This document shows, one piece after another, positions 6,141-59,051 of a stretch of 61,763 nt of DNA; position 1 is the first letter of the stretch, and every line of letters starts with the position of its first letter. The notes under the pieces are model-generated. The model saw only the letters and a list, made by a program, of their open reading frames with translations, did not search any database and was not told the origin of the DNA. The DNA is from an uncultured Planctomycetales bacterium. Its GTDB lineage: Bacteria; Omnitrophota; Gorgyraeia; Aquiviventales; Aquiviventaceae. Where the stretch lies: the NCBI GenBank assembly GCA_964372775.1, contig CAYJRJ010000002.1, positions 1-61,763 on the forward strand, written 5' to 3'. Made by a program: the position numbers and the translations under genes.

Positions 6141-6192
6141 GTAACGCGTAAGGCGTAACGCGTAACGTTACGCGTTTCACGTTACGCGTTAC
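6141..6192. repeat. hairpin built from tandem heptamers (GTAACGC / GTTACGC), probable terminator after ppc
   Basis: gtaacgc gtaaggc gtaacgc gtaac | gttacgc gtttcac gttacgc gttac. The arms are near-complementary. Confidence 0.8.
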
Positions 6193-6202
6193 ACGAGCGC
6201 AT

Positions 6203-6835
6203 ATGGGTACTCTGCTCATCTCGGCGGCGTCGGTGGCGTTCTTCCACGCGCTGGCCCCGGATCACTGGGTGCCGTTCGTCGCGCTGGCCAAGAGCTCGCG
6301 CTGGAGCATGGCGAAGCTCGGATGGGTCGCGCTGCTCGCAGGAATCGGCCACGTGGTCTCCTCGCTCCTGCTGGGTCTGATCGGGTTATGGGCGGGTCTG
6401 ATGATCCACCATGTCAAGGGCGCGGAGGCGTGGCGGGGCCGCGTGGGCATCTGGCTGCTCATCGGCTTTGGCGTCGCGTACGCGCTCTGGGGACTCAAGC
6501 ACGCACAGCATCACCATCCCCACGTCTCGGTTGAAGAGGCCGTGAAGGTCTATGCCGTGCGCCGCATGTGGATGCTCTTCGCGATCATGGTGTTCGGCCC
6601 GTGCGAGCCGCTCATCCCGCTGATGTTCGTGGCGTCGGAGCAGGGGATGACGACGGTGTGGACGATGAGCGCGCTCTTCTCAGTTGTGACCGTGGCGATG
6701 GTTGTGGGGCAGAGCTGTCTGAGCTACGCCGGCGTGCGCCTGATCAATACCCCGTGGATGGAGCGCTACGCCCACGCGCTTGCGGGTCTCGTGATCGTGC
6801 TGACAGCAATCTTCGTGTTGGTGAGTGGCGTGTAA
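6203..6835 (+). CDS. RcnA/NicO-like metal (Ni/Co) transporter membrane protein
   Basis: HALAPDHW motif in TM1, His-rich loop HAQHHHPH and a second-half FGPCEPLIP motif. About 6 predicted TM helices. The family call is tentative. Confidence 0.5.
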   Translation: MGTLLISAASVAFFHALAPDHWVPFVALAKSSRWSMAKLGWVALLAGIGHVVSSLLLGLIGLWAGLMIHHVKGAEAWRGRVGIWLLIGFGVAYALWGLKHAQHHHPHVSVEEAVKVYAVRRMWMLFAIMVFGPCEPLIPLMFVASEQGMTTVWTMSALFSVVTVAMVVGQSCLSYAGVRLINTPWMERYAHALAGLVIVLTAIFVLVSGV

Positions 6836-6845
6836 CTCCGTAAAA

Positions 6846-6884
6846 CATCATCCCCGCTCCGGCATCGCCGAAGCGGGGATGATG
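6846..6884. terminator. bidirectional stem-loop between convergent genes
   Basis: catcatccccgc (6846-6857) pairs with gcggggatgatg (6873-6884) in a perfect 12-bp stem. Confidence 0.6.
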
Positions 6885-6905
6885 AAGAAGTCGAGAAGGT
6901 TGGGC

Positions 6906-7268: not shown

Positions 7269-7389
7269 CTCCTATGTTGGAGGCAAGTGTAGCGACTCTG
7301 GCCGTGTCTGTCAAGTTTCTTTTTATTCTTTAAGCGTTCTTCATTGATTGTATTGACTTTTGAGCCGACTTTCCCGTAAAGTAACTGCC

Positions 7390-9085: not shown

Positions 9086-9098
9086 GCCCTCGCTCGGG

Positions 9099-9506: not shown

Positions 9507-9510
9507 TCTA

Positions 9511-9608
9511 TCGGGACAGTCCCATTTTTCGCTACGAGATGCGGTACGAATCGGGACAGTCCCCTTTTTCGCCACGAAGCCGATGATGCGAAAAAGGGGA
9601 CAGTCCCG
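9511..9608. repeat. three copies of the GGGACAGTCCC(C)TTTTT palindromic repeat (two direct, one inverted)
   Basis: tcgggacagtcccattttt (9511), tcgggacagtcccctttttcg (9551) and the inverted cgaaaaaggggacagtcccg (9589-9608). Confidence 0.85.
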
Positions 9609-10700: not shown

Positions 10701-10758
10701 CGGGACTGTCCCCTTTTTTGCTTCCTAGCCTCCACTTGTAAAAAAGGGGACTGTCCCG
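10701..10758. repeat. GGGACTGTCCCC-T6 hairpin (same family as 9511, 11823, 35581)
   Basis: cgggactgtcccctttttt ... aaaaaaggggactgtcccg. Confidence 0.85.
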
Positions 10759-11822: not shown

Positions 11823-11868
11823 CGGGACAGTCCCTCCGCCACAGTTCTTTGGCGGAGGGACTGTCCCG
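11823..11868. repeat. perfect 18-bp GGGACAGTCCC-family hairpin, probable terminator
   Basis: cgggacagtccctccgcc (11823-11840) is the exact reverse complement of ggcggagggactgtcccg (11851-11868). Confidence 0.85.
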
Positions 11869-13627: not shown

Positions 13628-14956
13628 ATGAACCAGCGGGGCATGGTGTACGTCGTCTCATTGGGCGTGGCGTTCATGTTGACCGTCATCGGCGCGTCCC
13701 TGCTGGTGCGCAGCGTTTCAGAACAGAGCCTGAGCCAACGATCCCGCGATCAAAGCGCCGCCCTCCATTTCGCCGAAGCGGGCGTCGACCAGGCCGCACG
13801 CAACCTTCGAACGCCGACGGATCCAGACGACGATACGACCGACAGTGACAATGCAGCGAAGATGGCCACTCGCCTGCCCGGTGGCCGATTTACGCTGGAC
13901 CCCACCTCGGCGCTTGGCAACAACCGCTATCAAGTGGTCAGTCATGGCACGAGCGATGATGATCCGAGCTATCCACGGGACATCGAAGCGACCTTTCAGC
14001 TGAAGCCCAAATCGATTTTTGATGGCCCGCTCTTTGGCGATGAGGGGGTCACCATCGGAGGTAGCGCGATCACCGACAGCTACAATTCGTGCCCCGGCGG
14101 CGTTTACAACGCAGACGGTTCATGTGCGGCTCCCAAAGGCTACAACGCCTGTTTGGCCACGAATGCTCAAACTGGTGTGTGCACCCAGTACAACAAGAAC
14201 CATAACGGCGATATCGGCACTAATGCGACAACGACGGGCGGCCTGACTGTCAGTGGGAGTATTTTCATTGATGGGCAGGTGGCAGTCGGTCCCGATGTGG
14301 TCAATCCGATCTCGGTCATTAGCTCAAACTGCAGCCCGCAGCCAAGCTGTATTCAGGCGTATATTACCGGTGGCACCTCACCTCCTAGCGATGATCAAGA
14401 CGTGTTTTCACAAGATGTGCCGCTCCCCCTGCCTGCGGTGACGCTCCCCGGCGGGCTGACCTCTTGTACGAACCAGACGATTACCGGAGGCAATACCCTG
14501 ACGCTTTCTCCCACCGGCGGTCCATTGGGCAACGGGACCTACTGTTTCAACAACCTGACCGTGCAGGGCAATGCCACCCTCACCGCGACCGATTCGGTGA
14601 CCGTGTACCTGACCGGAAAATTGACTGCTCGAGGGGACTCCGTCGTGGGTGTCACCAACAATCCCTCCGCGATGTCGTTCCTGATGACCTCCGGTGCGGA
14701 GGCGACGCTGGAGCAAGGGACCATCACCGGCCACACGACGTTCTACGGCTCTCTGTTTGGTCCGGATGCGACGATCGACATCAGTGGCAACGCGGACGTC
14801 TATGGCTCCATCGTCGCCGAGCAAATCAACGTGACTGGTAGCGCCTCTGTGCACTACGACGAGTCACTGGCCGACTGCGATCTCCACCCCGAGCATCCCG
14901 GCTGCTCGTACTCCCAGCACTTCACCACCTCCCTGGTGTCGTGGCGCGAGCTCTAA
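13628..14956 (+). CDS. PilX-N-terminal-domain protein with Thr/Gly/Ser-rich beta-helix-like C-terminal region
   Basis: MNQRGMVYVVSLGVAFMLTVIGASLL...EQSL fits the PilX_N pattern. GGAGGG lies 3 nt before ATG 13628. The C-terminal part has repetitive GNATLTA / GSASVHYD strands. Confidence 0.6.
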   Translation: MNQRGMVYVVSLGVAFMLTVIGASLLVRSVSEQSLSQRSRDQSAALHFAEAGVDQAARNLRTPTDPDDDTTDSDNAAKMATRLPGGRFTLDPTSALGNNRYQVVSHGTSDDDPSYPRDIEATFQLKPKSIFDGPLFGDEGVTIGGSAITDSYNSCPGGVYNADGSCAAPKGYNACLATNAQTGVCTQYNKNHNGDIGTNATTTGGLTVSGSIFIDGQVAVGPDVVNPISVISSNCSPQPSCIQAYITGGTSPPSDDQDVFSQDVPLPLPAVTLPGGLTSCTNQTITGGNTLTLSPTGGPLGNGTYCFNNLTVQGNATLTATDSVTVYLTGKLTARGDSVVGVTNNPSAMSFLMTSGAEATLEQGTITGHTTFYGSLFGPDATIDISGNADVYGSIVAEQINVTGSASVHYDESLADCDLHPEHPGCSYSQHFTTSLVSWREL

Positions 14957-14962: not shown

Positions 14963-15065
14963 CCACAGATCGCACAGATAAAGCACCCCCACAGATGACA
15001 CAGATAACACGGTCTATCTGTGCGATCTGTGGATCAGTTCATCTGTGCTATCTGATCTGTGTTAC
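14963..15065. repeat. CACAGAT-motif hairpin cluster after the PilX-like gene
   Basis: ccacagatcgcacagata (14963-14980) is the exact reverse complement of tatctgtgcgatctgtgg (15015-15032). Further CACAGAT/ATCTGTG copies flank it. Confidence 0.8.
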
Positions 15066-15112: not shown

Positions 15113-15610
15113 ATGAAACTGTCGACGAGATCCACCTATGGGTTACGCGCGTTGGTCGAGTTGGCCTTGGCAGGCGGACGCACACCGGTCTCAGCCGCGC
15201 TCATCGCCAAGCGCCAGGATTTGTCCGTGGCCTACCTGGAGCAGCTCCTGCATCGGTTGAAGAAGCAGGGAGTGGTGGGCAGCGTGCGAGGCCCGCGCGG
15301 AGGGTATGTCCTCGCCAAGGATCCGAGCCGCATCACGATGTCGGAGGTGGTGCAGGTGCTCGACGGGGCCAACGGCATGTCAAGTCACGTCAAGGTTCGC
15401 AATGGCGCGCGGCGCGCGTCGTCACACGGCAGTGTGTCATCGGCACGAGATCCGCACCGCCGCGCCCAGCGGATCGCGCAGGTGGTGTGGCAGTGTGTCC
15501 ACGAACGGCTCGCGCAGTCCTTGAGCGAGGTGACGCTGCAGGATCTCTGCGATGCGGTACGCGCGGAAACCGGGGACCCGCTGGACCACCGGTATGTCTT
15601 CCATATTTGA
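15113..15610 (+). CDS. Rrf2-family transcriptional regulator
   Basis: MKLSTRSTYGLRALVELA...LSVAYLEQLLHRLKKQGVVGSVRGPRGGYVL is a canonical Rrf2 winged helix-turn-helix. Confidence 0.9.
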   Translation: MKLSTRSTYGLRALVELALAGGRTPVSAALIAKRQDLSVAYLEQLLHRLKKQGVVGSVRGPRGGYVLAKDPSRITMSEVVQVLDGANGMSSHVKVRNGARRASSHGSVSSARDPHRRAQRIAQVVWQCVHERLAQSLSEVTLQDLCDAVRAETGDPLDHRYVFHI

Positions 15611-15758
15611 CACCACAGAGGCACAGAATGGACACAGAAGCACAGAGATAGTGCGGAGTTGGGAGTGCGGAGTTCGGAATAAAGCACTGATTCCGCACTT
15701 CGCACTCCGCATTCCGCATTCCTCTGATGTCTCTGTGGATTTCTGTGGTTCTGTGGTG
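15611..15758. repeat. nested repeat: CGGAATG/CGGAGTT-family hairpin (15651-15722) inside the loop of a CACAGA-family hairpin
   Basis: The outer arms are caccacagaggcacagaatggacacagaagcacagag and ctctgtggatttctgtggttctgtggtg. The inner arms are gtgcggagttgggagtgcggagttcggaat and attccgcacttcgcactccgcattccgcat. Confidence 0.85.
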
Positions 15759-17911: not shown

Positions 17912-17976
17912 GTTGGCGCGTTCCCGCGTCCCCGCGTTCCCGCGTTTTCAACGCGCCAACGCGCCAACGCGCGAAC
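17912..17976. repeat. hairpin with 8-nt periodic arms (GTTCCCGC / AACGCGCC)
   Basis: gttggcgc gttcccgc gtccccgc gttcccgc gtt ttc aacgcgcc aacgcgcc aacgcgcg aac. Confidence 0.8.
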
Positions 17977-21113: not shown

Positions 21114-23158
21114 AATTCCTCAAGGCGATCGAGCGTCCCGCCGACATCAAGCCACTCACCATCTCCCAGCTGGGCCTGCTCTCCCAGGAGATCCGAGAAG
21201 AGATCTTGCAGACCATTTCGCGGTTGGGCGGCCATTTGGCCTCCAGTCTCGGGGCGGTTGAGCTGTGCCTGGCACTCCACTACGTGTTTGACGCGCCCGA
21301 TGACCAGCTCATCTGGGACATGGGCTACCAGGCGTTCGCCCACAAGCTGATCACTGGGCGGCGCGACCGGTTCCGCACGCTCAAGCAGCTCGGCGGGCTC
21401 TCGGGATTCAGCAATAAAGAGGAAAGCCCCTACGACCTGTTTTCCACCGGTCACGGCGGCACCGCGCTCTCGACCGCGCTGGGCCTGGCCATGGCGCGCG
21501 ACCGAGGCGGCACCATCCACGCTGCCGAGGGAGTGTCGCGGACCGCTGGGTCCGCGACCGAGCAGGTCGACGGCTCCCGCCACGTGGTGGCGATTATCGG
21601 CGATGCCAGCCTCGGCGAAGGGATGGCGCTTGAGGCGCTCAACCACATCGGTCACATCAAGCCGAACCTGCTCGTCATCCTTAACGACAACCGGATGTCG
21701 ATCTCGCAGCCGGTGGGCGGGTTGAGCCGCTACCTCAACCGGATCATCACCAACCCGACGTACAACCGCCTGCGCGTCGACTTGACGCAGCTGATCAAGC
21801 GCCTGCCGCACGGCTCGGCGCTGGTGCGGCTCGGGCGCAAAGTCGAAGAGTCGGTCAAAGGGTTTCTGGTGCCCGGGCTGGTGTTTGAGGAGCTGGGCTT
21901 TCGCTACGTCGGACCGATCGACGGCCATGATCTGCGGGAGCTCATCACGACGTTGAAGAACGTCAAGCGGATGGAGGGGCCGATTCTCCTGCACGTCTCG
22001 ACCATCAAAGGCAAGGGGTACCGTCCGGCCGAGCAGGACCCGGAGCAATTCCACAAGATCGAGCCGTTCGACTTGGCTACCGGCCAGCTGAAGGCTGAAG
22101 GCTCAAGGCTGAAGGCGCAACCTCGTCGGAGGTCGGAGGTCGGAGGCTTGCCTCCACCCTCCACCCTCCACCCTCCAACGACGTACACGGAGGCCTTCAG
22201 CGACGAGCTCATCCGGTTGGCCGAGACGAACCGGCGCCTCATCGCCATCACCGCGGCGATGCCGGAAGGCACCGGCGTGAGCGAGTTCGCGAAACGATTC
22301 CCGCAGCGCTGCATCGACGTGGGCATGGCCGAGCAGCACGCGCTCGGTCTGGCGGCGGGCTTAGCGCGCGGCGGTTCCCGGCCCATCGTGGCGGTCTATT
22401 CGACCTTTCTCCAGCGGGCGTATGATCAGATCATGCATGAGATGTGCCTCCAGGCGCTGCCCGTCACACTGGCCATTGACCGCGCCAGCCTGGTGGGCGA
22501 GGACGGGCCGACCCACCACGGCGTCTTTGATATCGCCTACCTGCGCGTGTTGCCGAATCTTCTCGTGGCGTCGCCGAAAGATCCGGAGGAGCTGCGCGCC
22601 ATGTTGCGCTGGGCGCTCGAGCAGGATCGGCCCGTGGCCATTCGGTATGCCCGCGGCGGAATTATCTGCGGCGAACCCCTCGGCCGCTCCACGCAAATCA
22701 TCACAGGCAAGTCAGAGACGCTGCGGCCGGGCAAGGACCTGGCCCTGGTGGCCCTGGGCAGCATGGTGTACCCTGCGCTGGAGGTGGCCCAGCAACTCGC
22801 CCGCGCCGGCATTGACGCGATGGTGGTCAACGCCCGGTTCGTCAAACCGATCGACGAGGTCATGATCCGGCAGGTGGCCACACAGGTGCGGCGGATCGTG
22901 ACGCTGGAGGAGGCGCAGATCTCCGGCGGATTCGGCAGCGCAGTCTCCGAGGCGATTGATGCGCTGGGGCTGCCGGAGGTGCCGCTGCTGCGCCTCGGCC
23001 TGCCTGACGCCTTCGTTGAGCACGGCAAGCGCAGCGAGCTGTTGCAGCGTTGTCAGCTTGATCCTGAGAGCCTCACCAAACGCATCAGCCAATGGCATCA
23101 CCAACCGACGAAAGCCCCCGTTGACGAACTTCGACTCGTCACTGAATCCTCCACGTAG
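21110..23158 (+). CDS. dxs: 1-deoxy-D-xylulose-5-phosphate synthase (with two lineage-specific inserts)
   Basis: GGHLASSLG and the TPP motif GDASLGEGMALEALN are present, in the xseAB-ispA-dxs synteny. At 682 aa it is about 40-60 aa longer than typical DXS. Confidence 0.93.
   Translation: MKFLKAIERPADIKPLTISQLGLLSQEIREEILQTISRLGGHLASSLGAVELCLALHYVFDAPDDQLIWDMGYQAFAHKLITGRRDRFRTLKQLGGLSGFSNKEESPYDLFSTGHGGTALSTALGLAMARDRGGTIHAAEGVSRTAGSATEQVDGSRHVVAIIGDASLGEGMALEALNHIGHIKPNLLVILNDNRMSISQPVGGLSRYLNRIITNPTYNRLRVDLTQLIKRLPHGSALVRLGRKVEESVKGFLVPGLVFEELGFRYVGPIDGHDLRELITTLKNVKRMEGPILLHVSTIKGKGYRPAEQDPEQFHKIEPFDLATGQLKAEGSRLKAQPRRRSEVGGLPPPSTLHPPTTYTEAFSDELIRLAETNRRLIAITAAMPEGTGVSEFAKRFPQRCIDVGMAEQHALGLAAGLARGGSRPIVAVYSTFLQRAYDQIMHEMCLQALPVTLAIDRASLVGEDGPTHHGVFDIAYLRVLPNLLVASPKDPEELRAMLRWALEQDRPVAIRYARGGIICGEPLGRSTQIITGKSETLRPGKDLALVALGSMVYPALEVAQQLARAGIDAMVVNARFVKPIDEVMIRQVATQVRRIVTLEEAQISGGFGSAVSEAIDALGLPEVPLLRLGLPDAFVEHGKRSELLQRCQLDPESLTKRISQWHHQPTKAPVDELRLVTESST
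22087..22176. repeat. heptamer-periodic repeat/hairpin inside the dxs coding frame
   Basis: gctgaag gctgaag gctcaag gctgaag, then ggaggtc ggaggtc ggagg cttg cctccac cctccac cctccac cctcc. It is translated as QLKAEGSRLKAQPRRRSEVGGLPPPSTLHPP. Confidence 0.85.
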
Positions 23159-23239
23159 TTCCATGTTCCATGTTCCATGTTCCAAGTGTCACATGGGTCC
23201 GGTGCCTCAACTTCGAACTTCGAACTTGGAACCTGGAAC
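23158..23239. repeat. heptamer-periodic hairpin (GTTCCAT x4 / ACTTCGA-ACTTGGA)
   Basis: The 5' arm is at 23158-23187 and starts in the dxs stop codon. The 3' arm is at 23210-23239 and ends 9 nt before the gltX ATG. Confidence 0.8.
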
Positions 23240-24547: not shown

Positions 24548-24548
24548 T

Positions 24549-24646
24549 GGAAGCTAGAAGTTGGAAGTTAGAAGCTGGAAAAAACGGAGCCCTTCACTGG
24601 GTCTTTCTTGGTTTCCAACTTCTAATTTCCAGCTTCCAACTTCCAG
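24549..24646. repeat. heptamer-periodic hairpin (GGAAGYT/AGAAGYT family)
   Basis: ggaagct agaagtt ggaagtt agaagct ggaa ... ttccaac ttctaat ttccagc ttccaac ttccag. Confidence 0.85.
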
Positions 24647-24653: not shown

Positions 24654-25001
24654 ATGCAGGAGCGACGACACCACATCCGAATGGAGACGCCGGTCCTCAT
24701 TGAGTTTCCGAACCCCGGGACCATGACGACCGAGCGCAGCTACTCGCAGGATCTCAGCGAGTCCGGGCTGCGGTTTCCCTCGGCGGTGAGGCTTCAAGTC
24801 GGACAAGAGCTCCCCGTGACCCTGGCGCTGCCGTATCAGGAGCCGCCGCTGCACACCACCGGCGAGGTCCAGTGGGTTCGGGAGATTTCACGCCTCGGCG
24901 CGCCGCAGTATGAGGTCGGAGTGCGTTTTCGGTGGGTCGAGGATCCGGACCAACAGCGCCTGGCGCGCTACCTCTCCAGCCTGTTTCCTCGCCGCGTATG
25001 A
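24654..25001 (+). CDS. PilZ domain protein
   Basis: QERRHHIR (RRxxxR) and DLSESG (DxSxxG) are present. Length is 115 aa. Confidence 0.8.
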   Translation: MQERRHHIRMETPVLIEFPNPGTMTTERSYSQDLSESGLRFPSAVRLQVGQELPVTLALPYQEPPLHTTGEVQWVREISRLGAPQYEVGVRFRWVEDPDQQRLARYLSSLFPRRV

Positions 25002-25005
25002 TATC

Positions 25006-25113: not shown

Positions 25114-25114
25114 A

Positions 25115-34756: not shown

Positions 34757-36300
34757 GCAAAACCATATTTCTGCAAACTTATGGGTGTCAAATGAACTCC
34801 CGGGATTCGGAGGAAGTGCTTGGGATGCTGACGGCGCAGGGCTACGAGATTGCTGAGCAGCCTGAGGCAGCCGACGTCATCCTCCTCAATACCTGCTCGG
34901 TGAGGCAGCATGCCGAGGAGCGGGCGTTCGGCAAGATGGGAGAGCTCTCCGAGCTGAAGAAGGAGAAGCCCGACCTCGTGCTGGGCATCATTGGGTGTAT
35001 GGCGAAACTGCAGCAAGAAGATATCTTTCGACGTCTGCCCCGGGTTGATCTAGTGGCCGGTCCTGCCGAATTGTACGATTTGCCGTATCTGTTAGCGGAG
35101 ATACAAGAGAAGCGCCAAAAAACAGACTTGGCTGAGGGTTATGGGTTGGGGGTTGGGGGCAAGAATGGTCTGCCCACAACCCCGAACCCCCAACCCCGAA
35201 CCAGGGTGGTCGCGGTGAGACGGCAGTACCGGCCACTTGAGAAGAAGCCGGTTGGCGATTACCGTACGCCTGGCGTCAACGCGTTCGTCACCATCATGGA
35301 AGGGTGCGACAAGGCGTGCACGTACTGCATCGTGCCCAAGACGCGCGGGCAGGAGATCTCGCGCCCCGCCGAGGAGATTCTTGAAGAGCTCAACCGCCTC
35401 GTTGAGGCTGGCTACCAGGACATCACGCTGCTGGGTCAAAACGTCAACTCCTACGGCAAGCGGTTTCCGGATGGCTCAGGCTACAAGGGTCCGCTTGGCC
35501 GACTGCGTCTCTTAGAGGAAGAGCCTGACTCGCTGCTCGATTTTCCGGCGCTCTTACGGCGCATCGACGCTTCGCTACGAAATGGGGACAGTCCCCTTTT
35601 TCCGAAGGGAAAAAGGGGACTGTCCCCATTACGGGTGCGGTTTACGACGAGCCATCCGTTTGACGCCAACGAGCGGCTGTTTGAGGCGATGCGCGACTGC
35701 GACTCGGTCTGCGAGTGGCTGCATTTGCCGGTGCAGTCCGGCTCCAACCGCATCCTGCGGGCGATGCGCCGGGGCTACACCGTCGAGGCTTACTTGAACA
35801 AGCTCGAGCAGCTGCGCCGCTGCGTGCCGGAGATCAGTCTCTCGACGGACATCATTGTCGGCTTCCCAGGAGAGACCGACGAAGACTTCCAGGCGACGGT
35901 GCGGCTGCTCGAGGAAGTCCGCTACGACATCGCCTACATCTTTAAGTACTCGCCACGGCCGGGGACGGATGCGGCCGCGCGCGAGGATGATGTGCCCCAA
36001 GAGGTGAAAGAAGAGCGCAACCAAATACTCCTCGCGCTGCACGAACAGATCCTGCGCGAGCTGCTGGCCGCGTTCGTCGGCCGCGAGGTCGAGCTCCTCA
36101 TCGAAGGGCCTGGCAAGATGCCCGGCCAATGGTTCGGCCGCACCCGCGGCAACTACGGCGTCATTGTGGAAAGCGACAGCCCGATCATCGGAGCGCGGCT
36201 GGATGTGACCATTGCCCGCGCCGGCTCGCGTACGCTGTTCGGCGCTCTACCCGCAGGTGAAATTTTTGTTGGACAGGGTTCACCTGTTGCGCGACAATAA
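34753..36300 (+). CDS. miaB: tRNA-i6A37 methylthiotransferase MiaB (with two in-frame palindrome-encoded inserts)
   Basis: TYGCQMN, the radical-SAM motif CDKACTYCIVP and a TRAM-like C-terminus are present, with miaA downstream. At 515 aa it is longer than the usual ~440-450 aa. Confidence 0.9.
   Translation: MSKTIFLQTYGCQMNSRDSEEVLGMLTAQGYEIAEQPEAADVILLNTCSVRQHAEERAFGKMGELSELKKEKPDLVLGIIGCMAKLQQEDIFRRLPRVDLVAGPAELYDLPYLLAEIQEKRQKTDLAEGYGLGVGGKNGLPTTPNPQPRTRVVAVRRQYRPLEKKPVGDYRTPGVNAFVTIMEGCDKACTYCIVPKTRGQEISRPAEEILEELNRLVEAGYQDITLLGQNVNSYGKRFPDGSGYKGPLGRLRLLEEEPDSLLDFPALLRRIDASLRNGDSPLFPKGKRGLSPLRVRFTTSHPFDANERLFEAMRDCDSVCEWLHLPVQSGSNRILRAMRRGYTVEAYLNKLEQLRRCVPEISLSTDIIVGFPGETDEDFQATVRLLEEVRYDIAYIFKYSPRPGTDAAAREDDVPQEVKEERNQILLALHEQILRELLAAFVGREVELLIEGPGKMPGQWFGRTRGNYGVIVESDSPIIGARLDVTIARAGSRTLFGALPAGEIFVGQGSPVARQ
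35136..35202. repeat. heptamer-periodic hairpin (GGGTTGG / CCCCRAA) inside the miaB frame
   Basis: gggttat gggttgg gggttgg ggg c aagaatggtct gcccacaa ccccgaa cccccaa ccccgaa cc. It encodes GYGLGVGGKNGLPTTPNPQPRT. Confidence 0.8.
35581..35630. repeat. perfect 23-bp GGGACAGTCCCC-family palindrome inside the miaB frame
   Basis: aatggggacagtcccctttttcc-gaag-ggaaaaaggggactgtccccatt. It encodes NGDSPLFPKGKRGLSPL between RRIDAS and RVRFTTSHP. Confidence 0.9.
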
Positions 36301-39739: not shown

Positions 39740-40311
39740 GCGACAAGCGGCACCACGAGCCTGTCGTGGCGCACGATGAGCTCGAGCGGCTTCGGCAGGA
39801 AGCCGCCACGGCCAAGGATCAGTACCTGCGGACATTAGCCGAGTTTGAGAATGCGAAAAAGCGGCTTCATCGCGAGAAGGAAGAGTTTTCGAAGTACGCG
39901 GCGGAGTCGCTGGTGCGGGAGCTGCTGCCGATTATGGACAGCTTGGACCAGGCACTCGTGGCCGTCGATCCCTCGACTCGCCCCGCCATGGCGGGGCTCG
40001 CTCGGGACTCCGCCCCTGCGGGGCTTCGTAAACAGCCGGACATGGAGGCGATCCTCAAAGGCATCCAGCTCATTCACCGACAGCTCTTGAAGCTGCTCGA
40101 GAAAGAGGGCGTCCAGCGAATTCCGACGGTGGGTGAGGCGTTTGATCCGCACCGGCACGAAGCCGTCGCGCAAGTGGAGCCCAGTGATGGGCAAGCGGAC
40201 AACACCATTGCGGAAGAAGTGCACGTCGGCTACACCATGCACGGGAAGGTGATTCGGCCGGCGATCGTGAAAGTGGCGAAACGAGGTCAGAAGTTGGAAA
40301 CTGGAAGCTAG
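39736..40311 (+). CDS. grpE: nucleotide exchange factor GrpE
   Basis: LR..AEFENAKKR..RE and GY..HGKVIRPA.V.V are present. Its ATG overlaps the hrcA stop. Confidence 0.92.
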   Translation: MSDKRHHEPVVAHDELERLRQEAATAKDQYLRTLAEFENAKKRLHREKEEFSKYAAESLVRELLPIMDSLDQALVAVDPSTRPAMAGLARDSAPAGLRKQPDMEAILKGIQLIHRQLLKLLEKEGVQRIPTVGEAFDPHRHEAVAQVEPSDGQADNTIAEEVHVGYTMHGKVIRPAIVKVAKRGQKLETGS

Positions 40312-40368
40312 AAGTTGGAACTGCGGTTGCTTTTTCTAACTTCCAGCATCCAATGTCCAACATCCAAC
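40289..40368. repeat. heptamer-periodic hairpin (AGAAGTT/GGAAGCT family, same as 24549) overlapping the grpE 3' end
   Basis: agaagtt ggaaact ggaagct agaagtt ggaa ... ttctaac ttccagc atccaat gtccaac atccaac. The 5' arm encodes the last residues of GrpE (QKLETGS*). Confidence 0.85.
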
Positions 40369-40402
40369 ACGAACGGCTGTAAGTAACGAGGAGGTTCTTG
40401 CA

Positions 40403-42280
40403 ATGGCTAAGGTCATTGGGATCGATCTCGGAACGTCCAACTCAGCCTGTGCGGTGATGGAGCAGGGGCGGCCGGCGATCATCCCGTCAGCGGAAGGGAC
40501 AAGCGTCGGCGGCAAGGCGTTTCCGTCCTACGTGGCGTTCACGAAGGACGGGCAGCTCTTGATCGGTGAGCCGGCCCGTCGGCAAGCGGCCACCAATCCG
40601 GAAGGGACGGTGCAGGCGGCCAAGCGGAAGATGGGCACCGACCATGTCTATCGGATCAGCGGCAAGGAGTACACGCCGCAGCAGATCTCGGCGTTCATCC
40701 TGCAGAAGGTCAAGCGGGATGCCGAAGCTCACCTGGGTGAGCCGGTCAAAGAGGTGGTCATCACCGTGCCCGCGTATTTCAACGACAACCAGCGCCAGGC
40801 CACGAAAGATGCGGGGGCCATCGCTGGCTTGGAGGTGCTGCGCATCATCAATGAGCCCACCGCCGCGTGTCTGGCCTACGGGCTCGACAAGGCGGGCAAA
40901 GAGCAGAAGATCCTCGTATTTGATCTGGGTGGCGGCACGCTTGATGTGACCATCATGGACATGGCGCAGGGGGTCTTTGAGGTGAAGTCCACCAGCGGCG
41001 ATACGCAGCTGGGCGGCACCGACATGGATCTGGCGTTGGTGGACTACATCGCCGGTGAGTTCAGGAAGGAAACCGGCATTGACGTGCGCCAGGACAAGAT
41101 GGCGGCCCAGCGCATCCGCGAAGCGGTGGAGAAGGCGAAGATCGAGCTCTCCAACGTGCTGGAGACGGATCTGAACCTGCCGTTTATCACTGCGGATGCC
41201 TCTGGCCCCAAGCACCTGACGACGAAGTTGACCCGCGCGACGCTGGAACGGTTGATCGAGCCGATCATCGGCCGCTGCCGCGCTCCGGTGGAGCGCGCGC
41301 TCTCGGATGCCAAGCTGCGTCCGTCGGACATTGACCGGATCATCCTGGTGGGCGGGCCGACCCGCATGCCCATCGTCCAGAAGTTCGTGGAAGAGGCGGT
41401 CGGCAAGAAGGTGGAGCGCGGCGTGGATCCGATGGAATGTGTCGCCATGGGTGCCGCCATCCAAGCCGGCATCATCAAGGGGGATGTGAAAGACATCCTG
41501 CTCTTGGATGTCACACCGCTCTCCCTGGGGATCGAGACCATGGGCGGCATCTTCACCAAGCTCATCGAGCGCAACACGACGATTCCGACGAAAAAGAGCA
41601 ACGTCTTTTCCACGGCGGCCGACAACCAGCCGGCCGTGACGGTGAGCGTCTCTCAGGGCGAGCGGCCCATGGCGGCGGACAACACGCGCCTGGGCCAGTT
41701 TAACCTCGAGGGCATCCCGCCAGCACCCCGCGGCGTGCCGCAGATCGAGGTGACGTTCGACATCGACGCCAACGGCATCGTGCACGTCTCGGCGAAGGAC
41801 CTGGGAACCGGCAAGGAGCAGTCGATCAAGATCAGCGCGCCGCAGAAGCTCGCGAAGGATGAGATCGAGAAGATGGTCAAGCAGGCCGAGCAGTTCGCCG
41901 ACGACGACAAGAAGCGCCGCGAGCTGGCCGAGGCCAAGAATCAGGCGGACCAGCTCGTCTACTCGACGGAGAAGAGCCTCAAGGATCTCGGCGACAAAGT
42001 GAGCCAGTCCGACCGGCTCGCCATCGAGCAGGCCGCGCGCGATCTCAAGGACGCCATCAAGTCGGACGACGCCGAGAAGATCACGCGAGGCACCGACGCG
42101 CTGACGCAAGCGTCGCACAAGCTGGCGGAAGAGGTGTACAAGAAAGCCCAGGCGCAGGGGGCGGGGGGCAAGGGGCGTGGGGCGGGGGAAACCGCCCAAG
42201 AAGAACCGGCAGAGAAGGGCCGCGGGAAGGACGACAAGGTCGTCGACGCCGAGTTCAAAGTGCAGGACGACAAAAAGTGA
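40403..42280 (+). CDS. dnaK: molecular chaperone DnaK (Hsp70)
   Basis: [19 protein letters not shown] and the remaining Hsp70 signatures are present. Confidence 0.97.
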
Positions 42281-42367
42281 GCGTTAGCCTGTTAGCGCGT
42301 TTGCGAGTTAGCGTGTTGCCGAGGAACCTCAACCCGCAAACGCGATAACGCGCCAACGCGCAAACGC
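42281..42367. repeat. 8-nt periodic hairpin (GCGTTAGC / GCGCAAAC type)
   Basis: gcgttagc ctgttagc gcgtttgc gagttagc gtgttgcc ... cgcaaac gcgataac gcgccaac gcgcaaac gc. Confidence 0.8.
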
Positions 42368-43502: not shown

Positions 43503-43506
43503 GCAG

Positions 43507-43539
43507 AATGCGGAGTTCGGAATGCGGAGTTCGGAATGC
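43507..43539. repeat. single arm of the CGGAATG/CGGAGTT heptamer family
   Basis: aatgcgg agttcgg aatgcgg agttcgg aatgc. No complementary arm follows. Confidence 0.75.
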
Positions 43540-43892: not shown

Positions 43893-44222
43893 GTGGGCGC
43901 CTACGCCGCGCTGGTGCTGGCACTCTCGGTGCTCCCCGGCGATGTGGGGCCCAAGATCCCTCACCTTGACAAGGTGCTGCATCTTTGCGAGTATGCTCTC
44001 TTCGCGTGGTTGTTGACCCGGGCCATCCGCGCTACCGCAAGCCCCCCGCACGCGAGCTCCTACGTCCTTTGGGCCTGGCTGTATGCCACGAGCTACGGGT
44101 TATTGATGGAGGTCATTCAGCGTCTGGTGCCGTGGCGCTCGGCTGACCTGATGGACGCCGTCATGAATACGCTGGGAGCGGCGCTCGGCGCGAGAATCGG
44201 CAGAAAAGGGCGAAGACGATGA
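43893..44222 (+). CDS. VanZ-like membrane protein
   Basis: DKVLHLCEYALFAWLL and SADLMDAVMNTLGAALG are VanZ-like. The start is uncertain. GTG 43893 was chosen to avoid overlap with the FmdB gene. Confidence 0.6.
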   Translation: MGAYAALVLALSVLPGDVGPKIPHLDKVLHLCEYALFAWLLTRAIRATASPPHASSYVLWAWLYATSYGLLMEVIQRLVPWRSADLMDAVMNTLGAALGARIGRKGRRR

Positions 44223-44345
44223 AGCACCAAATTCCAAATCCCAAATTCCAAATAAATTCCAAGCGCCAAGCACCAAACGCACGGTGTTTGAAATTTGGAA
44301 CTTGGTGCTTGTTTGGTGCTTTGGATTTGGTGCTTGGAATTTGAA
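44222..44345. repeat. long heptamer-periodic hairpin (TTCCAAA/CACCAAG family), 'empty' copy
   Basis: aagcacc aaattcc aaatccc aaattcc aaataaattcc aagcgcc aagcacc aaacgc -acgg- tgtttga aatttgg aacttgg tgcttgt ttggtgc tttggat ttggtgc ttggaat ttgaa. Confidence 0.85.
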
Positions 44346-49746: not shown

Positions 49747-49820
49747 GAATTCGGAGTTCGGAATTCGGAATGCGGAATACCCGGATGGCCATTCAGCATT
49801 CCGCACTCCGCATTCCGCAC
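49747..49820. repeat. heptamer-periodic hairpin (CGGAATK/CGGAGTT family)
   Basis: gaattcgg agttcgg aattcgg aatgcgg aat ... attcagc attccgc actccgc attccgc ac. Confidence 0.85.
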
Positions 49821-49837
49821 TGCAGGCAGTCATTGGT

Positions 49838-51133
49838 ATGTTAGTGGTCATCGGATGTTGGGTGCTGGCGATGTGCGCGGGGCTGTTGTGGTCCCGCTGG
49901 TGGACCGGCGTGTGCACGGCCATCGCCGCTGCTGCGTTTGTCGCACTCCAAGGCTCGAGCCTGGCGCACTGGAGCGGCTGGGCCACATTGGCCAGCATGC
50001 TGCTGGGCCCCTGGCTGCTGGCCGCGCAGCAGGAGCGCCATGAGCAATTCCTGAAGGGCCTCCATGTCGAGGAGGCGAAGCGCATGACCCGCCTCTCGGA
50101 GTCCACGCGCTCCCTCCTGGCGCTGCAGCAGTCGCTCCAGGATCTCGAGGCCCAGATCGCGTCGATCACCGATGTGTACCACGTGACCAAGGCGACGGCC
50201 AAGGCGCTACGTCTCTCGGAGCTCTTCAGCGGATCGCTCGATATCGCCCCGCGGTTTCTCGACGCCAGAGGCTTGCGGCTCATTGATCTCTCCCAGGAGG
50301 CGCCGCACGCCTTCCGCGCGTCGAAGGCCGCCGATGGGCGCATGGTGGCCGCCCAGGAAGAGCCGGTGCTCAACGAGGTGGAGCACTCGGTCGTGGAGCA
50401 GCTGCGCTCCGCCGCGAGCCGGCCCTCGAATGGCGCGGCGCACATGCTCTCCTGCGCCGTCGAAGGGCTCTCGCACGTGGCGTGGGCGCCGCTGTGGCGC
50501 GAGCAGCAACCGATCGGGGTGCTGGTGGCGGACGAGCTGCCCGAGGGGCAGTTGAAGATGCTGGCCATGATCGCCAATCAGCTCTCGCTGCAGCTCTCCC
50601 GCATCCGGTTGTATGAGAAGGTGGAAGCACTTGCGGTGACGGATGCGCTCACCGGACTCTCCGTACGCCGGCACTTCATGGAGCGGGCCGAGGAGGAGCT
50701 CAAGCGGTCGCAGCGCCATGAGCTGCCATGCACGATGCTCATGGTGGATCTGGACCGCTTTAAGGAGAAGAACGATACCTACGGGCACCTTGTGGGCGAT
50801 GTCGTGCTGAGGGATGTGGCGCGCTTGCTCAAACGGAATCTGCGCGACATCGACCTGATCGCGCGCTTCGGCGGGGAAGAGATCATCATGCTGCTGATTG
50901 AGACTGGTTTGGAGCAGGCGATTCCCATCGCCCAGCGGTTCAAGCAGCTCGTCGAAGTCCACCCGATCCGCGCGTACGACGAGCTGCTGATGCAAACCGT
51001 GAGCATCGGCCTGGCGGGTTTCCCGGATGACGGCGGGACACTGCACGCACTCATCGAGCGCGCCGACAAGGCGCTCTATGCGGCCAAACGCGCGGGGCGC
51101 AATCAAGTTGTGCGATGGACGACGGCATGTTAG
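49838..51133 (+). CDS. membrane-anchored sensor GGDEF diguanylate cyclase
   Basis: N-terminal TM helices, a coiled-coil/GAF-like middle region, and GGDEF with RFGGEEI. Confidence 0.85.
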   Translation: MLVVIGCWVLAMCAGLLWSRWWTGVCTAIAAAAFVALQGSSLAHWSGWATLASMLLGPWLLAAQQERHEQFLKGLHVEEAKRMTRLSESTRSLLALQQSLQDLEAQIASITDVYHVTKATAKALRLSELFSGSLDIAPRFLDARGLRLIDLSQEAPHAFRASKAADGRMVAAQEEPVLNEVEHSVVEQLRSAASRPSNGAAHMLSCAVEGLSHVAWAPLWREQQPIGVLVADELPEGQLKMLAMIANQLSLQLSRIRLYEKVEALAVTDALTGLSVRRHFMERAEEELKRSQRHELPCTMLMVDLDRFKEKNDTYGHLVGDVVLRDVARLLKRNLRDIDLIARFGGEEIIMLLIETGLEQAIPIAQRFKQLVEVHPIRAYDELLMQTVSIGLAGFPDDGGTLHALIERADKALYAAKRAGRNQVVRWTTAC

Positions 51134-56327: not shown

Positions 56328-56333
56328 GTCGCG

Positions 56334-57647
56334 ATGGGATCGCTGGGACAGCTCGCCAATCGGATTGAGCGTCGTCGGGCCAGCGTCGGGGTCATCGGGC
56401 TCGGCTACGTCGGGCTGCCGCTGGCGGTGGAATTTGCGCGCGAGGGCTTCCGGGTCACCGGTATCGATCTGGACCGCTCGCGCATCAAAGGGGTCAACCG
56501 CGCCCGCTCCTACATCGGCGATGTCTCCAGCGACGACCTGCGCACGATGCGCCAGGCGAAACGGCTCTCGGCCACCCGCTCCTTCGACGCGCTGGCCCGG
56601 CAGGATGCGATCATCATCTGCGTGCCCACCCCGCTGCGCAAGACCCGCGAGCCGGACATGTCCTACATCGTCTCGGCCACCAACGAGATCGCCAAGCGCG
56701 TGTGCCGCGGCCAGCTCATCGTGCTCGAAAGCACGACGTACCCCGGCACGACGGATGAAGTGATTCTGCCGGCGCTTGCGGCGCGCGGCCTGAAGGTGGG
56801 CCGCGACTTTTGCCTCGCGTTTTCACCGGAGCGCATCGACCCCGGCAATCCCACCTACACGACGCGCACGATTCCCAAAGTCATCGGCGGGGTCACGCCC
56901 CTGTGCACGCGGCTCGCCAACGCGCTCTACGGCAGCATCATCCACCGGACCGTGCCCGTCACCTCGACGAAAGCCGCCGAGATGGTCAAGCTGCTGGAAA
57001 ATACCTTCCGCGCGGTCAACATCGGCCTCGTCAACGAGATCGCCATCATCTGCAATCGGCTGGGCATCGACGTGTGGGAAGTGATCGATGCCGCGAAGAC
57101 CAAGCCCTTCGGCTTCATGCCGTTTTATCCGGGTCCTGGCATCGGAGGCCACTGTATTCCAAGCGACCCGGTGTACCTAGCGTGGAAGGTGCGCGTGCAC
57201 GGCTCTGAGGCGCGCTTCATCGAGCTGGCGACGCACATCAACGGGGCGATGCCCGAATACGTCGTCGAGAAGGTGGTGACGGCGCTCAACGAGCGACGCA
57301 AGTCGCTCAAGGGTTCCCGCGTGCTGCTGCTGGGGCTCGCGTACAAGAAGGACGTCAACGATCTGCGGGACTCGCCGGCGTTTGACGTGGCGCGGATTCT
57401 GCAAGAGCGCGGCGCGATCGTGGCGTATCATGACCCGCACGTGCCCAGCACGATGCTCAACGGGAGGCCGCAGCGCTCGGCGCCGCTGAGCCCCTCGACG
57501 CTGCGACGCTGCGCCTGCGTGGTGATCCTCACGAACCACTCGAAGGTGGACTACAGCTTGCTGCTGCGCCATGCCACGGTGATCGTCGATACGCGCAACC
57601 AGTACGGGTACCTCTCGCGGCCCTCGGCAAAGGTGGTGAAACTCTAA
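56334..57647 (+). CDS. UDP-N-acetyl-hexosamine 6-dehydrogenase (WbpA/WecC/TviB-like nucleotide-sugar dehydrogenase)
   Basis: GLGYVGLPLA, ERIDPGN and GGHCIPSDP are present. Exact substrate cannot be assigned from sequence alone. Confidence 0.85.
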   Translation: MGSLGQLANRIERRRASVGVIGLGYVGLPLAVEFAREGFRVTGIDLDRSRIKGVNRARSYIGDVSSDDLRTMRQAKRLSATRSFDALARQDAIIICVPTPLRKTREPDMSYIVSATNEIAKRVCRGQLIVLESTTYPGTTDEVILPALAARGLKVGRDFCLAFSPERIDPGNPTYTTRTIPKVIGGVTPLCTRLANALYGSIIHRTVPVTSTKAAEMVKLLENTFRAVNIGLVNEIAIICNRLGIDVWEVIDAAKTKPFGFMPFYPGPGIGGHCIPSDPVYLAWKVRVHGSEARFIELATHINGAMPEYVVEKVVTALNERRKSLKGSRVLLLGLAYKKDVNDLRDSPAFDVARILQERGAIVAYHDPHVPSTMLNGRPQRSAPLSPSTLRRCACVVILTNHSKVDYSLLLRHATVIVDTRNQYGYLSRPSAKVVKL

Positions 57648-58591
57648 TGGCACGCTACTTGGTGACAGGCGGGGCAGGGTTCATCGGCTCGCACGTCGTG
57701 GATCGGCTCGTCAGCGAAGGCCATCAGGTCCGCGTGCTCGACGATCTGTCCAGCGGCAAGCTCGAGAACCTCGCCGACGTGCGCTCCAAGGTCGAGTTCA
57801 TTCAAGCCGATCTGCGGGATCGCGCCGTTGTGACAAAAACCTGCGCAGGGATTGAGTGCATCATCCATGAAGCCGCCTGGCGTAGCGTGCCCAAGTCGAT
57901 GGCCGATCCGGTCGGCTACACCGACGTCAACGTCATGGGCACCGCCTACTTGCTCGATGCGGCGGTCCAAGCCAAGGTCAAGCGGATCGTAGCGATCTCC
58001 TCCAGCTCGGTCTACGGTGACACCGAGACCATGCCCCTGCGGGAAGACCAGCCCTGCCTGCCTATTTCGCCCTACGCAGCTTCTAAATTGCTCAATGAAG
58101 TCCAGTGCGGTCTCTACGCGCGCGCGTTCGGCCTGGAGACGGTGGCGGTGCGCTACTTCAACGTCTTCGGTCCCCGCCAGAGCCTCGAGAACCAGTACGC
58201 GGTCGTCGTGCCCAAGTTTATTGTCTGCCTCTTGCGCAAAGAGTCGCCGCCGGTCTATGGCGACGGCAAGCAGTCGCGCGACTTCACCTATGTCGACAAC
58301 GTGGTCGACGGCACCCTGCTGGCCGCGCGCGTGCCCGGGGTGAGCGGGGAGGTGTTCAACATTGCGCTCGGGGAAGAGCACACCGTGTTGGATTTGCTCA
58401 AAGAGATCAACGAGATCATGAAGTGCTCTGTCGCGCCGACATTCGAGCCGCCCCGCGCCGGCGACATGCGCCGCACGTTTGCCGACTCCTCCAAGGCCCA
58501 GCGCCTGCTCGGATGGAAGGGGAAGGTGAGTTTCTCCGAGGGCCTGCGCCGCACCGTCTCCTGGTTCCGTGAGCATCCTCCTAAGACGTAA
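57647..58591 (+). CDS. NAD-dependent nucleotide-sugar epimerase (SDR family, WbpP/TviC-like)
   Basis: GGAGFIGSH and catalytic YAASK are present. Its ATG overlaps the previous stop. Confidence 0.88.
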   Translation: MARYLVTGGAGFIGSHVVDRLVSEGHQVRVLDDLSSGKLENLADVRSKVEFIQADLRDRAVVTKTCAGIECIIHEAAWRSVPKSMADPVGYTDVNVMGTAYLLDAAVQAKVKRIVAISSSSVYGDTETMPLREDQPCLPISPYAASKLLNEVQCGLYARAFGLETVAVRYFNVFGPRQSLENQYAVVVPKFIVCLLRKESPPVYGDGKQSRDFTYVDNVVDGTLLAARVPGVSGEVFNIALGEEHTVLDLLKEINEIMKCSVAPTFEPPRAGDMRRTFADSSKAQRLLGWKGKVSFSEGLRRTVSWFREHPPKT

Positions 58592-58630
58592 ATTCCAAGC
58601 ACCAAGTTCCAAATTCCAAATAAGCACCAA
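58591..58630. repeat. left arm of TTCCAAA/CACCAAG-family inverted repeat flanking the four-helix-bundle gene
   Basis: aattcca agcacca agttcca aattcca aataagcaccaa. It runs into the ATG at 58630. Confidence 0.85.
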
Positions 58631-58995
58631 TGGCCAATATTCCAAACACAAGTCGTCGCTATGATCTTGAGGAGAGAACCCTTAGGTTCGCTCAAAACAC
58701 CATCAAACTATGCCAGTTATTACCTCAGCATGTCGTGAACCGTGAGCTTGTCAGTCAGCTTGTCCGAGCAAGCGGTTCGGTAGGCGCCAATTACCGAGAA
58801 GCAAACGAAGCTTTAAGCAAGAAAGACTTTGGACATCGCATCAAGATTGCGCGCAAGGAGGCGAAAGAGGCTTACTATTGGCTGCAGTTGCTGGAGGGAG
58901 CCAACCCGAGCACGAGCGACGAGACAACGAGGTTGCTTCAGGAGGCTCTTGAACTGAGAAAGATTTTGTCTACGATCGCTGATCGTGCTTCGTAG
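58630..58995 (+). CDS. four-helix-bundle protein of the '23S rRNA intervening sequence protein' family (TIGR02436-like)
   Basis: YDLEERTLRFA...I.L...LP........QL.RA..S...N..EA....SKKDF.....IA.KE..E..YWL.L pattern. It is visibly more AT-rich than its neighbours. Confidence 0.8.
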   Translation: MANIPNTSRRYDLEERTLRFAQNTIKLCQLLPQHVVNRELVSQLVRASGSVGANYREANEALSKKDFGHRIKIARKEAKEAYYWLQLLEGANPSTSDETTRLLQEALELRKILSTIADRAS

Positions 58996-59051
58996 TTTGG
59001 TGCTTGGTGCTTGGGGTTTATTTGGTGCTTGGGATTTGGTACTTGGGATTT
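58996..59051. repeat. right arm of the inverted repeat flanking the four-helix-bundle gene
   Basis: tttggtgcttggtgcttggggtttatttggtgcttgggatttggtacttgggattt. It is an imperfect complement of the left arm and of the 44222-44345 family. Confidence 0.85.

Follow-up and report, generated by a model that had tools for sequence, protein, structure and literature searches.

The window analyzed here is a stretch of 61,763 nucleotides from an uncultured Omnitrophota bacterium (contig CAYJRJ010000002.1, forward strand), and forms contig C2 of a 1.335 Mb bin of 64 contigs that is about 86% complete. The genome has a GC content of 63%, and the closest relatives of its GltX and DnaJ are high-GC groundwater Candidatus Omnitrophota metagenome-assembled genomes (MAGs). 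The genes, nearly all located on the plus strand, include ppc, rny, dxs, gltX, miaB, grpE-dnaK-dnaJ and lptD. Between these genes, and in two cases inside them, lie hairpins whose arms are built from tandem copies of 7-nt or 8-nt units, and at one site two such arms enclose a 121-codon open reading frame (ORF) of the PF05635 family, named '23S rRNA intervening sequence protein', an Avd-like four-helix bundle with 2RLD as its nearest solved structure. An earlier note on this DNA had listed such hairpins at gene ends, and we checked the window loci by Tandem Repeats Finder (TRF), an inverted-repeat finder and folding (Table 1). All of the listed loci exist, but those at 22087, 35136, 43507 and 58591/58996 had been misdescribed: the CGGARTK array at 43507 is a solo 5′ arm without a partner, and the tandem arms at 58591 and 58996 are the two halves of one split element, lying about 340 nt apart around the 121-codon gene. 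The hairpin at 14963 was absent from that list.

To place these loci in context, we searched the entire 1.335 Mb genome by TRF for arrays of at least three copies, using an order-3 Markov sequence as control. Arrays of period 7 numbered 437 versus 7 in the control and those of period 8 numbered 55 versus 8; all other periods remained at about control level. The arrays comprised 92 canonical heptamer units, with a few dominant ones (CGGAATG/CGGAGTG, GCTGAAG/GCTCAAG with CCTCCAG, AAAAGGC and CACATGT). For 346 of the 512 repeat blocks a reverse-complement partner was present, mostly 0–40 nt away, and the paired blocks yielded 192 hairpins, corresponding to 14.4 per 100 kb. The arms had a median length of 31 nt, with 79% of the 384 arms in the range of 24–38 nt (3.5–5.5 units; about 4–4.5 units per arm), and the lengths of the 5′ and 3′ arms were correlated. 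The median loop was 14.5 nt, the median paired length 31 bp and the mean stem energy about −45 kcal/mol. As a check for artefacts, the tandem-arm design was found again in many independent assemblies, finished genomes included. The 7/8-nt tandem-arm hairpins are real and far above chance, and the earlier note's picture of a shared 7/8-nt periodicity, of a single architecture with many sequence families and of dispersed families holds at the scale of the genome, as does its proposal that a shared agent explains the hairpins better than one transposing sequence.

The gene enclosed at one of the window loci provided a link to a known protein family. The genome contains four PF05635 genes, one with an internal stop, and all four sit between complementary tandem-heptamer arrays, co-directional with their host operons. 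The units of these arms (CGGARTK, GCTSAAG/CCTCCAG and TTCCAAR) match the most abundant families among the approximately 190 gene-less hairpins, with 37 gene-less copies for CGGARTK and 25 for GCTSAAG/CCTCCAG. Furthermore, two distant Omnitrophota loci that were fetched by their CGGARTK arrays alone turned out to contain a 59–60% identical PF05635 gene within CGGARTK/MAYTCCG arms. Of 301 Omnitrophota genomes, 6 had both CGGARTK arrays and a gene of this PF05635 clade, 8 the arrays only, 5 the gene only and 282 neither, corresponding to an odds ratio of 42 (p = 1.3e-6).

Table 1 Tandem-repeat features of the window and PF05635 copies elsewhere in its genome.
Feature	Position	Strand	Composition or support	Context
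Solo AATCCAA x3.3 array	1711..1733	+	TRF; no hairpin on folding, no complementary arm	End of gene 973–1731
GTAACGC/GTTACGC tandem-heptamer hairpin, zero loop	6141..6192	+	88% complementary; −32.6 kcal/mol	Between ppc (3359–6127) and gene 6203–6835
Octamer-type hairpin CACAGATN / ATCTGTGN	14963..15054	+	TRF, inverted-repeat finder, fold	Between genes 13628–14956 and 15113–15610
Nested element	15614..15757	+	Whole structure folds at −99.5 kcal/mol; outer octamer arms CACAGARN (15614–15647) and TCTGTGGN (15727–15757); inner hairpin CGGARTK x4 / MAYTCCG x4 (15650–15722)	Neighbors: Rrf2-family gene and 5-formyltetrahydrofolate (5-FTHF) cyclo-ligase gene
Octamer hairpin GCGTTCCC / AACGCGCC	17912..17976	+	TRF, fold	Directly 3′ of rny (16352–17908)
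dxs in-frame linker insert	22087..22177	+	GCTGAAG x4, GGAGGTC x3, loop, CCTCCAC x4	Within the frame of dxs (21110–23158)
GTTCCAT x4 / AACTTCG-GGAAC hairpin	23158..23239	+	Fold	dxs-gltX gap
GGAAGYT/AGAAGYT hairpin	24548..24645	+	−49.6 kcal/mol	Gap between gltX and PilZ gene
GGGTTGG / CCCCRAA hairpin	35137..35202	+	Inverted-repeat finder, fold	Variable linker of miaB (34753–36300), in frame, ~22 extra residues
GGAAGYT-type hairpin	40290..40369	+	Fold	Overlaps grpE end, upstream of dnaK
Octamer hairpin GCGTTAGC / AACGCGCN	42278..42367	+	Inverted-repeat finder, fold	dnaK-dnaJ gap; dnaK stop codon within first unit
Solo CGGARTK 5′ arm	43506..43539	+	14-nt period, 100% match; no complementary arm nearby	After dnaJ
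Long TTCCAAA/CACCAAG - TTGGTGC/TTTGGAA hairpin	44222..44343	+	Inverted-repeat finder, fold	After VanZ-like gene
CGGARTK x4.5 / MAYTCCG x3.7 hairpin	49747..49821	+	Fold	Neighbors: genes 48269–49735 and 49838–51133
5′ arm of gene-bearing element	58590..58646	+	TTCCAAR/CACCAAG heptamers; TRF, fold	
PF05635 gene, 121 codons	58630..58995	+	Pfam E 5.3e-19; PDB 2RLD E 1.7e-13	Element loop
3′ arm of gene-bearing element	58985..59051	+	TTGGTGC/TTGGGAT heptamers, complementary to 58590–58646; TRF, fold	Stops 5 nt before DegT-family gene
PF05635 copy, window			5′ arm TTCCAAR; 3′ arm its complement	
PF05635 copy	Contig C51, first		5′ arm GCTCAAG x4; 3′ arm CTTSAGC	
PF05635 copy	Contig C51, second		5′ arm GCTGAAG x4; 3′ arm CCTCCAG x4	
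PF05635 copy	Contig C10		5′ arm CGGARTK x4; 3′ arm MAYTCCG x4	

The same arrangement was observed across phyla. Homologues of the window gene were collected with a narrowed alignment of its clade, and the XCC0516 clade served as a second set. In the window clade, flanking inverted repeats were present at 33 of 78 loci versus 1 of 78 reversed controls, the top-scoring arms having period 7; the phyla and groups sampled include Verrucomicrobiota, Acidobacteriota, Chloroflexota, Bacteroidota, Nostoc and Planctomycetota. For the XCC0516 clade, named after the crystallized protein (PDB 2GSC), we found them at 45 of 77 loci versus 1 control, with period 7 in 37 of the 45. In Xanthomonas vasicola (L257:560-1400) and Pseudoxanthomonas (L258), GGGAATC/GATTCCC arms surround the XCC0516 orthologue in the gap between accB and accC; these arms consist of the repeat hitherto treated only as a G-quadruplex motif (PMC4692102). 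Moreover, distances between proteins and between their arm units were correlated (Spearman 0.29, permutation p = 5e-4). Heptamer arms are thus associated with PF05635 across phyla, arms and protein co-diverging. The earlier suggestion that a protein reads the periodic repeat has thereby gained a lead, as every PF05635 gene of this genome is wrapped in arms whose units co-diverge with the protein, which, judged by sequence, is a candidate reader only. PF05635 is homologous to Avd, the accessory protein of diversity-generating retroelements (PMC10053308), and its gene has been observed wedged among operon genes, e.g. cmr3 and cmr2 (PMC3936711).

Based on these data we consider it probable that the hairpins are copies of a selfish foldback element of the intervening-sequence (IVS) type, together with gene-less derivatives, which are co-transcribed as intercistronic stem-loops. 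Such an element would comprise two inverted arms of about 4–4.5 tandem 7-nt, sometimes 8-nt, units each, placed around a gene or a short loop. The gene-bearing form would enclose the PF05635 four-helix-bundle gene, and the gene-less form, with its short unrelated loop, would resemble a miniature inverted-repeat transposable element (MITE). Each mRNA copy is predicted to form an imperfect, roughly 30-bp stem, an intercistronic stem-loop that would have no terminator role. We infer that gene and arms constitute a selfish unit moving horizontally and that the gene-less hairpins derive from the gene-bearing element.

Intervening sequences of 23S rRNA that bear an ORF were reportedly described by Ralph and McClelland in 1993. 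They occur in Coxiella burnetii and Leptospira (Warrier et al. 2016; PMC4990558), and the Coxiella IVS combines a terminal stem of 28 bp with an S23p (PF05635) ORF and with tandem GACAGAT heptamers, three to four of them depending on the strain; RNase III cuts in its stem, and its mobility is a hypothesis (PMC4990558). The features shared with the element described here are the PF05635/S23p gene in the loop (here 58630–58995), the terminal inverted repeats forming a stem of ~28 bp with tandem heptamers (here a median of 31 bp paired), and the sporadic, horizontally transferred-looking occurrence with co-transcription with the host RNA. In contrast to the rRNA IVSs in 23S helix 25 or 45, the copies here occupy mRNA spacers and protein linkers, nearly all of them are gene-less, they amount to about 190 with dozens of unit families in one small genome, and no RNase III, the enzyme excising rRNA IVSs, was detected in the host lineage. 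All copies lie between or inside protein genes of an assembly without a 23S rRNA gene, so that a copy in rRNA could escape notice.

We next consider the position of the hairpins relative to genes. They start at a median of 11 nt after the stop codon, and the median distance from their end to the following start codon is 19 nt, the intergenic spacers of the genome measuring only about 45–50 nt. Their nearness to stop codons therefore follows from the compactness of the genome; the location directly at stop codons given in the earlier note is accurate as a distance but, the next start being likewise close, non-specific, and it does not apply at 22087 and 35136, the two in-frame copies of the window, which lie within dxs and miaB. 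Most hairpins are found between co-directional genes and 5 between divergent genes; others lie within operons, e.g. grpE-dnaK-dnaJ. Taken together, they occupy transcribed but dispensable positions.

These positions bear directly on whether the hairpins are Rho-independent terminators or attenuators at gene ends, a function that their strong stems and short distance to the stop codons would suit and that the earlier note had read from their placement. We regard this as highly improbable. Of the 153 hairpins between co-directional genes, only 4.6% were followed by a T-rich tail, defined as at least 8 T within 15 nt downstream, about the same as the 3.9% of the opposite strand, in agreement with the few T-runs already remarked upon, and copies are found between divergent genes, within the essential-gene operon grpE-dnaK-dnaJ and inside the dxs and miaB frames. 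The low share of T-rich tails and the in-gene copies led us to reject intrinsic terminators. Terminator candidates are offered by a separate T-run palindrome family, CGGGACAGTCCCC, which is non-periodic, dispersed (9552–9608, 10701–10758, 11823–11868 and 35578–35633) and flanked by T and A runs; its members look like bidirectional intrinsic terminators, and the copy at 35578–35633 lies inside the open miaB frame. Likewise, a known RNA family was rejected, the sole Rfam match in the window at gathering thresholds being a tRNA.

The sense and antisense strands of the hairpins fold with equal stability (−44.6 vs −45.7 kcal/mol) and with similar numbers of G·U pairs (346 vs 370). This leaves no signature of selection for sense-strand G·U pairing, and sense-strand RNA selection was rejected on these grounds. 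Whether hairpins hide or present Shine-Dalgarno sites gave an uninformative test, as the genome hardly uses such motifs. Throughout the genome, Shine-Dalgarno-like motifs are rare upstream of genes, with ~30% of genes showing a 4-mer match, near chance; this scarce use resembles Bacteroidota and Cyanobacteria, likewise carriers of heptamer repeats.

Conserved synteny with about 25 relatives allowed a junction-by-junction comparison, in which some relative junctions were scored by eye; the simple periodicity detector misses imperfect repeats. At the rny junction, the octamer hairpin of the window is replaced by CGGATTG, CAGAGGT and GGAAGCT heptamers in L001, L003 and L004, respectively, and by a non-periodic hairpin in L010. 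The dxs-gltX site is empty in L003–L005. The junction between gltX and the PilZ gene is empty (0–40 nt) in L002–L006; L001 and L059 carry 8-mer families there, giving three different families in all. The TTCCAAA/CACCAAG family of 44222..44343 is present in L004 and L093 at other junctions. Close relatives thus differ by gain, loss and replacement of hairpins at identical gene junctions. Per 100 kb, the own genome has 14.4 hairpins and close relatives have 12.9, compared with 1.7 for other Omnitrophota and 1.4 for other phyla, indicating a lineage-specific burst. Relative L002 carries a long-stem insert of ~520 nt (L002:1976-2501) between dxs and gltX, where other relatives have 0–140 nt. In the window, an inverted repeat ATCCCACCCCC...GGGGGTGGGAT at 24990–25129 adjoins the tRNA at 25283–25353, and in L095, L096, L098, L101 and L106, inserts of 200–250 nt with folding energies of −105 to −152 kcal/mol lie 5′ of the orthologue of window gene 46265–47155; they are bounded by GATCCCAC(G/C)CCCTG...CAGGGCGTGGGATGA and preceded by a promoter-like TGTGTTACCATAA. 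Either a structured RNA or a further class of insert may be involved.

The dxs insert is old: it occupies an identical linker position in 8 of 8 close relatives, and a Dxs of 47% identity lacks it. In each lineage, substitutions specific to that lineage are shared by every one of the four or five units of an arm, indicating concerted evolution, and the two arms show compensatory changes between species (A-T to T-A in L004, A-T to G-C in L005 and L010, C-G to T-A in L006). In the miaB linker, the insert differs from relative to relative, with a solo CACCCAG/CACTAAG x4 array in L096, a GC-rich palindrome with GACAGAA repeats in L104, and AAAGTGCCAGGCACTTT palindromes in L097, which recur after rny in L010. 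Just 5′ of miaB, at 34559–34788, the window contains a 116-nt tandem duplication with two copies that are 80% identical.

In the CGGARTK family, no covariation was observed between variable positions of the 5′ and 3′ arms (A·C 32, G·T 23, A-T 17, G-C 14). With 55 non-Watson–Crick versus 31 Watson–Crick combinations, continuing arm-to-arm templating was rejected, and of the previously proposed slippage coupled to hairpin templating only the slippage-type homogenization within an arm remains. Slippage by itself could make the hairpins a pure mutational by-product, a replication or repair polymerase of this lineage, prone to 7-nt slippage, expanding short repeats in existing palindromes with neither mobility nor a dedicated protein. 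The separate homogenization of units per arm and lineage, the many singleton unit families, the strain-dependent unit number in Coxiella (PMC4990558) and the over-representation of heptamer simple sequence repeats in many bacteria, ascribed to the polymerase footprint (cited in PMC4692102), are all in line with such an origin. It would nevertheless be hard to reconcile with the narrow arm length and the correlation between the two arms, with an identical degenerate CGGARTK family in different classes and phyla, always of the same polarity, and with the tight, statistically strong association with the one gene family PF05635, rendering slippage as the sole cause decidedly unlikely. One family differs from the others: the AT-rich composite hairpin (AAAAGGC/AAAAGTC)n of ~100 nt, with 13 copies (e.g. 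C10:5291-5390, C17:13385-13484 and C30:3538-3638), has a conserved center AAAATTACAAGGCAAAATTCAAAA and a conserved internal order, like a classical MITE.

The arms have a fixed polarity. When the gene-less hairpins are oriented by their flanking genes, the 5′ arm had G>C in 122 and G<C in 25 cases, and in the gene-less CGGARTK copies the G-rich arm came first in 37 of 37. For the gene-bearing loci of other genomes, the arm upstream of the PF05635 gene had G>C in 63 of 66. In discordant cases, polarity followed the gene by 8 vs 2 and 9 vs 1 against GC skew or strand majority, indicating, on a small discordant sample, that it is tied to transcription rather than replication. Searching for the RNase III domains PF14622 and PF00636 by Pfam in six frames, we detected none in the own genome and 15 genomes of the same family, several of them 92–96% complete, and the domains were present in only 2 of the 26 genomes searched (own and 25 relatives). 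The excision of rRNA IVSs by RNase III is therefore probably not applicable here, and RNase III processing was set aside for the family of the window. The stems probably persist in the mRNAs of this lineage, and in the absence of the enzyme long stems may have ceased to be costly within messages and reading frames, allowing the expansion. This absence is not sufficient, because other RNase III-less Omnitrophota have few hairpins.

The polarity would also fit intercistronic RNA elements selected by the host, in which case slippage would only furnish the starting material and the PF05635 gene would simply be carried along. Here, the stem would stabilize the upstream mRNA, insulate the next start or set relative expression, like the repetitive extragenic palindromic (REP) sequences and bacterial interspersed mosaic elements (BIMEs) of E. 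coli. Besides a polarity tracking transcription and not GC skew, the rny junction, where some hairpin is present in 5 of 5 relatives compared with sequences all different, the preservation of dxs insert pairing by compensatory changes and the little use of Shine-Dalgarno motifs argue for host selection. However, many orthologous junctions are empty (0–40 nt) in close relatives, an mRNA-end function would be senseless for the in-frame copies in dxs and miaB, the sense and antisense folds are alike, and the largest family, CGGARTK, shows no covariation of variable positions. Moreover, the same families occur, with the gene, at non-orthologous sites of other genomes and phyla. We therefore judge host selection to be unlikely as the main explanation.

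High-copy dispersed intergenic palindromes, some of them nested composites, are also reminiscent of REP sequences and REPINs (REP doublets forming hairpins) mobilized by a RAYT (REP-associated tyrosine transposase), an IS200/IS605-like Y1 transposase, or of MITEs of a DDE transposon. As in E. coli REP/BIME and REPIN–RAYT systems, the palindromes are dispersed between genes within operons and form mRNA stem-loops. However, PF01797 (Y1/RAYT) gave no match in the 86%-complete genome and a match in each of 6 control genomes. In place of one conserved 35-nt palindrome, the arms consist of tandem repeats from many unrelated families; a conserved REP head is lacking, and whereas recent REP or REPIN copies have conserved spacers, the CGGARTK loops are unrelated. 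Filled and empty sites gave no clear target-site duplication; at the gltX junction, comparison revealed only a possible GATM overlap, itself demanded by the stop and start codons. A REP/RAYT system was rejected for want of a Y1 transposase match in the 86%-complete genome, in agreement with the earlier note, which had recognized no REP class, and mobilization by a RAYT or DDE transposase appears very improbable. A retroelement origin was rejected as well, since no RVT_1 domain was found in the genome.

Several of our observations weigh against the selfish IVS-type element. Neither movement nor an enzyme nor a target-site duplication was seen: Y1 transposase and reverse transcriptase were not found, and DDE transposases were not searched for. 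About half of the PF05635 genes sampled elsewhere are without detectable arms, and relative G288 has 25 CGGARTK arrays without a cognate PF05635 gene. The genome contains about 70 unit families, yet its 4 PF05635 genes cover just 3–4 of these, leaving most families without a resident gene. The loops of the 37 gene-less CGGARTK copies are unrelated and 0–25 nt long, which is odd for copies made by transposition. Furthermore, shared host composition could account for part of the correlation of protein with arm-unit distance, and the absence of RNase III was deduced from Pfam six-frame searches.

A more specific version of the selfish element, which we put forward tentatively and consider rather doubtful, assigns an active role to the protein. 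The solved homologues of PF05635 are ring-shaped homopentamers. A pentameric PF05635 protein might read its own arms, one heptamer per protomer, and drive copying or maintenance via the single-stranded G-rich arm; reading one heptamer per protomer would explain the limit of about 4–5 units. If this were true, the heptamers of Xanthomonas, Geobacter, the cyanobacterial short tandemly repeated repetitive (STRR) sequences and Omnitrophota would be footprints of one widespread, protein-guided selfish element, which would also be the source of rRNA intervening sequences, and loss of RNase III would have enabled the burst observed here.

In terms of architecture alone, the element is analogous to the foldback (FB) elements of Drosophila, which are eukaryotic, far larger and consist of inverted arms of short tandem repeats around a variable or absent center, sometimes with ORFs. 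Among bacteria, intergenic GGGAATC heptamers in Xanthomonas and GGGGAYT heptamers in Nostoc most often form arrays of four units (Rehm et al. 2015; PMC4692102). They lie ~28 nt past the upstream ORF, mostly between co-directional genes, with 70–75 convergent inverted pairs per genome, and differ in length and sequence among related species (PMC4692102). The tandem heptamers of about four units, their intergenic position near the upstream ORF and the frequent convergent inverted pairs are shared with the hairpins described here. In the published case, one G-rich family per genome was explained by G-quadruplexes and not connected with PF05635 (PMC4692102), whereas most units here (CGGAATG, GCTSAAG, GTTCCAT, CACAGARN and TTCCAAA) have no GGG and cannot form a G-quadruplex but keep the four-unit arm. 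As to the tandem heptanucleotide repeats of cyanobacteria (STRR), the same work cites three such units from Calothrix (PMC4692102). Geobacter metallireducens contains elements of four tandem heptanucleotides each, with 49 copies between and inside genes, a second class being drawn as inverted pairs (Aklujkar et al. 2009; PMC2700814). In contrast to our reading, these were interpreted as regulatory sites, and no connection to a hairpin, an IVS or PF05635 was drawn (PMC2700814). The statement in the earlier note that this is not a described class is thus half right, parts of it having been published for Xanthomonas (PMC4692102), Geobacter (PMC2700814), cyanobacteria and the Coxiella IVS (PMC4990558); a search of the openly available literature yielded no paper joining heptamer repeats to PF05635 or IVSs.

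For 15–35 years, the heptamers of cyanobacteria, Xanthomonas and Geobacter, the general surplus of 7-nt simple repeats among bacteria, the origin of intervening sequences in rRNA and the function of PF05635/Avd-like proteins have remained unexplained. The present genome unites these threads, as its gene-bearing and gene-less copies share arm families, as polarity is fixed and gene junctions turn over rapidly between relatives, and as one insert has survived in frame in an essential gene with its pairing kept, in a host lineage that apparently lacks RNase III. For genome annotation, this implies that such stems should not be labelled terminators and that they lengthen real proteins, e.g. Dxs and MiaB.

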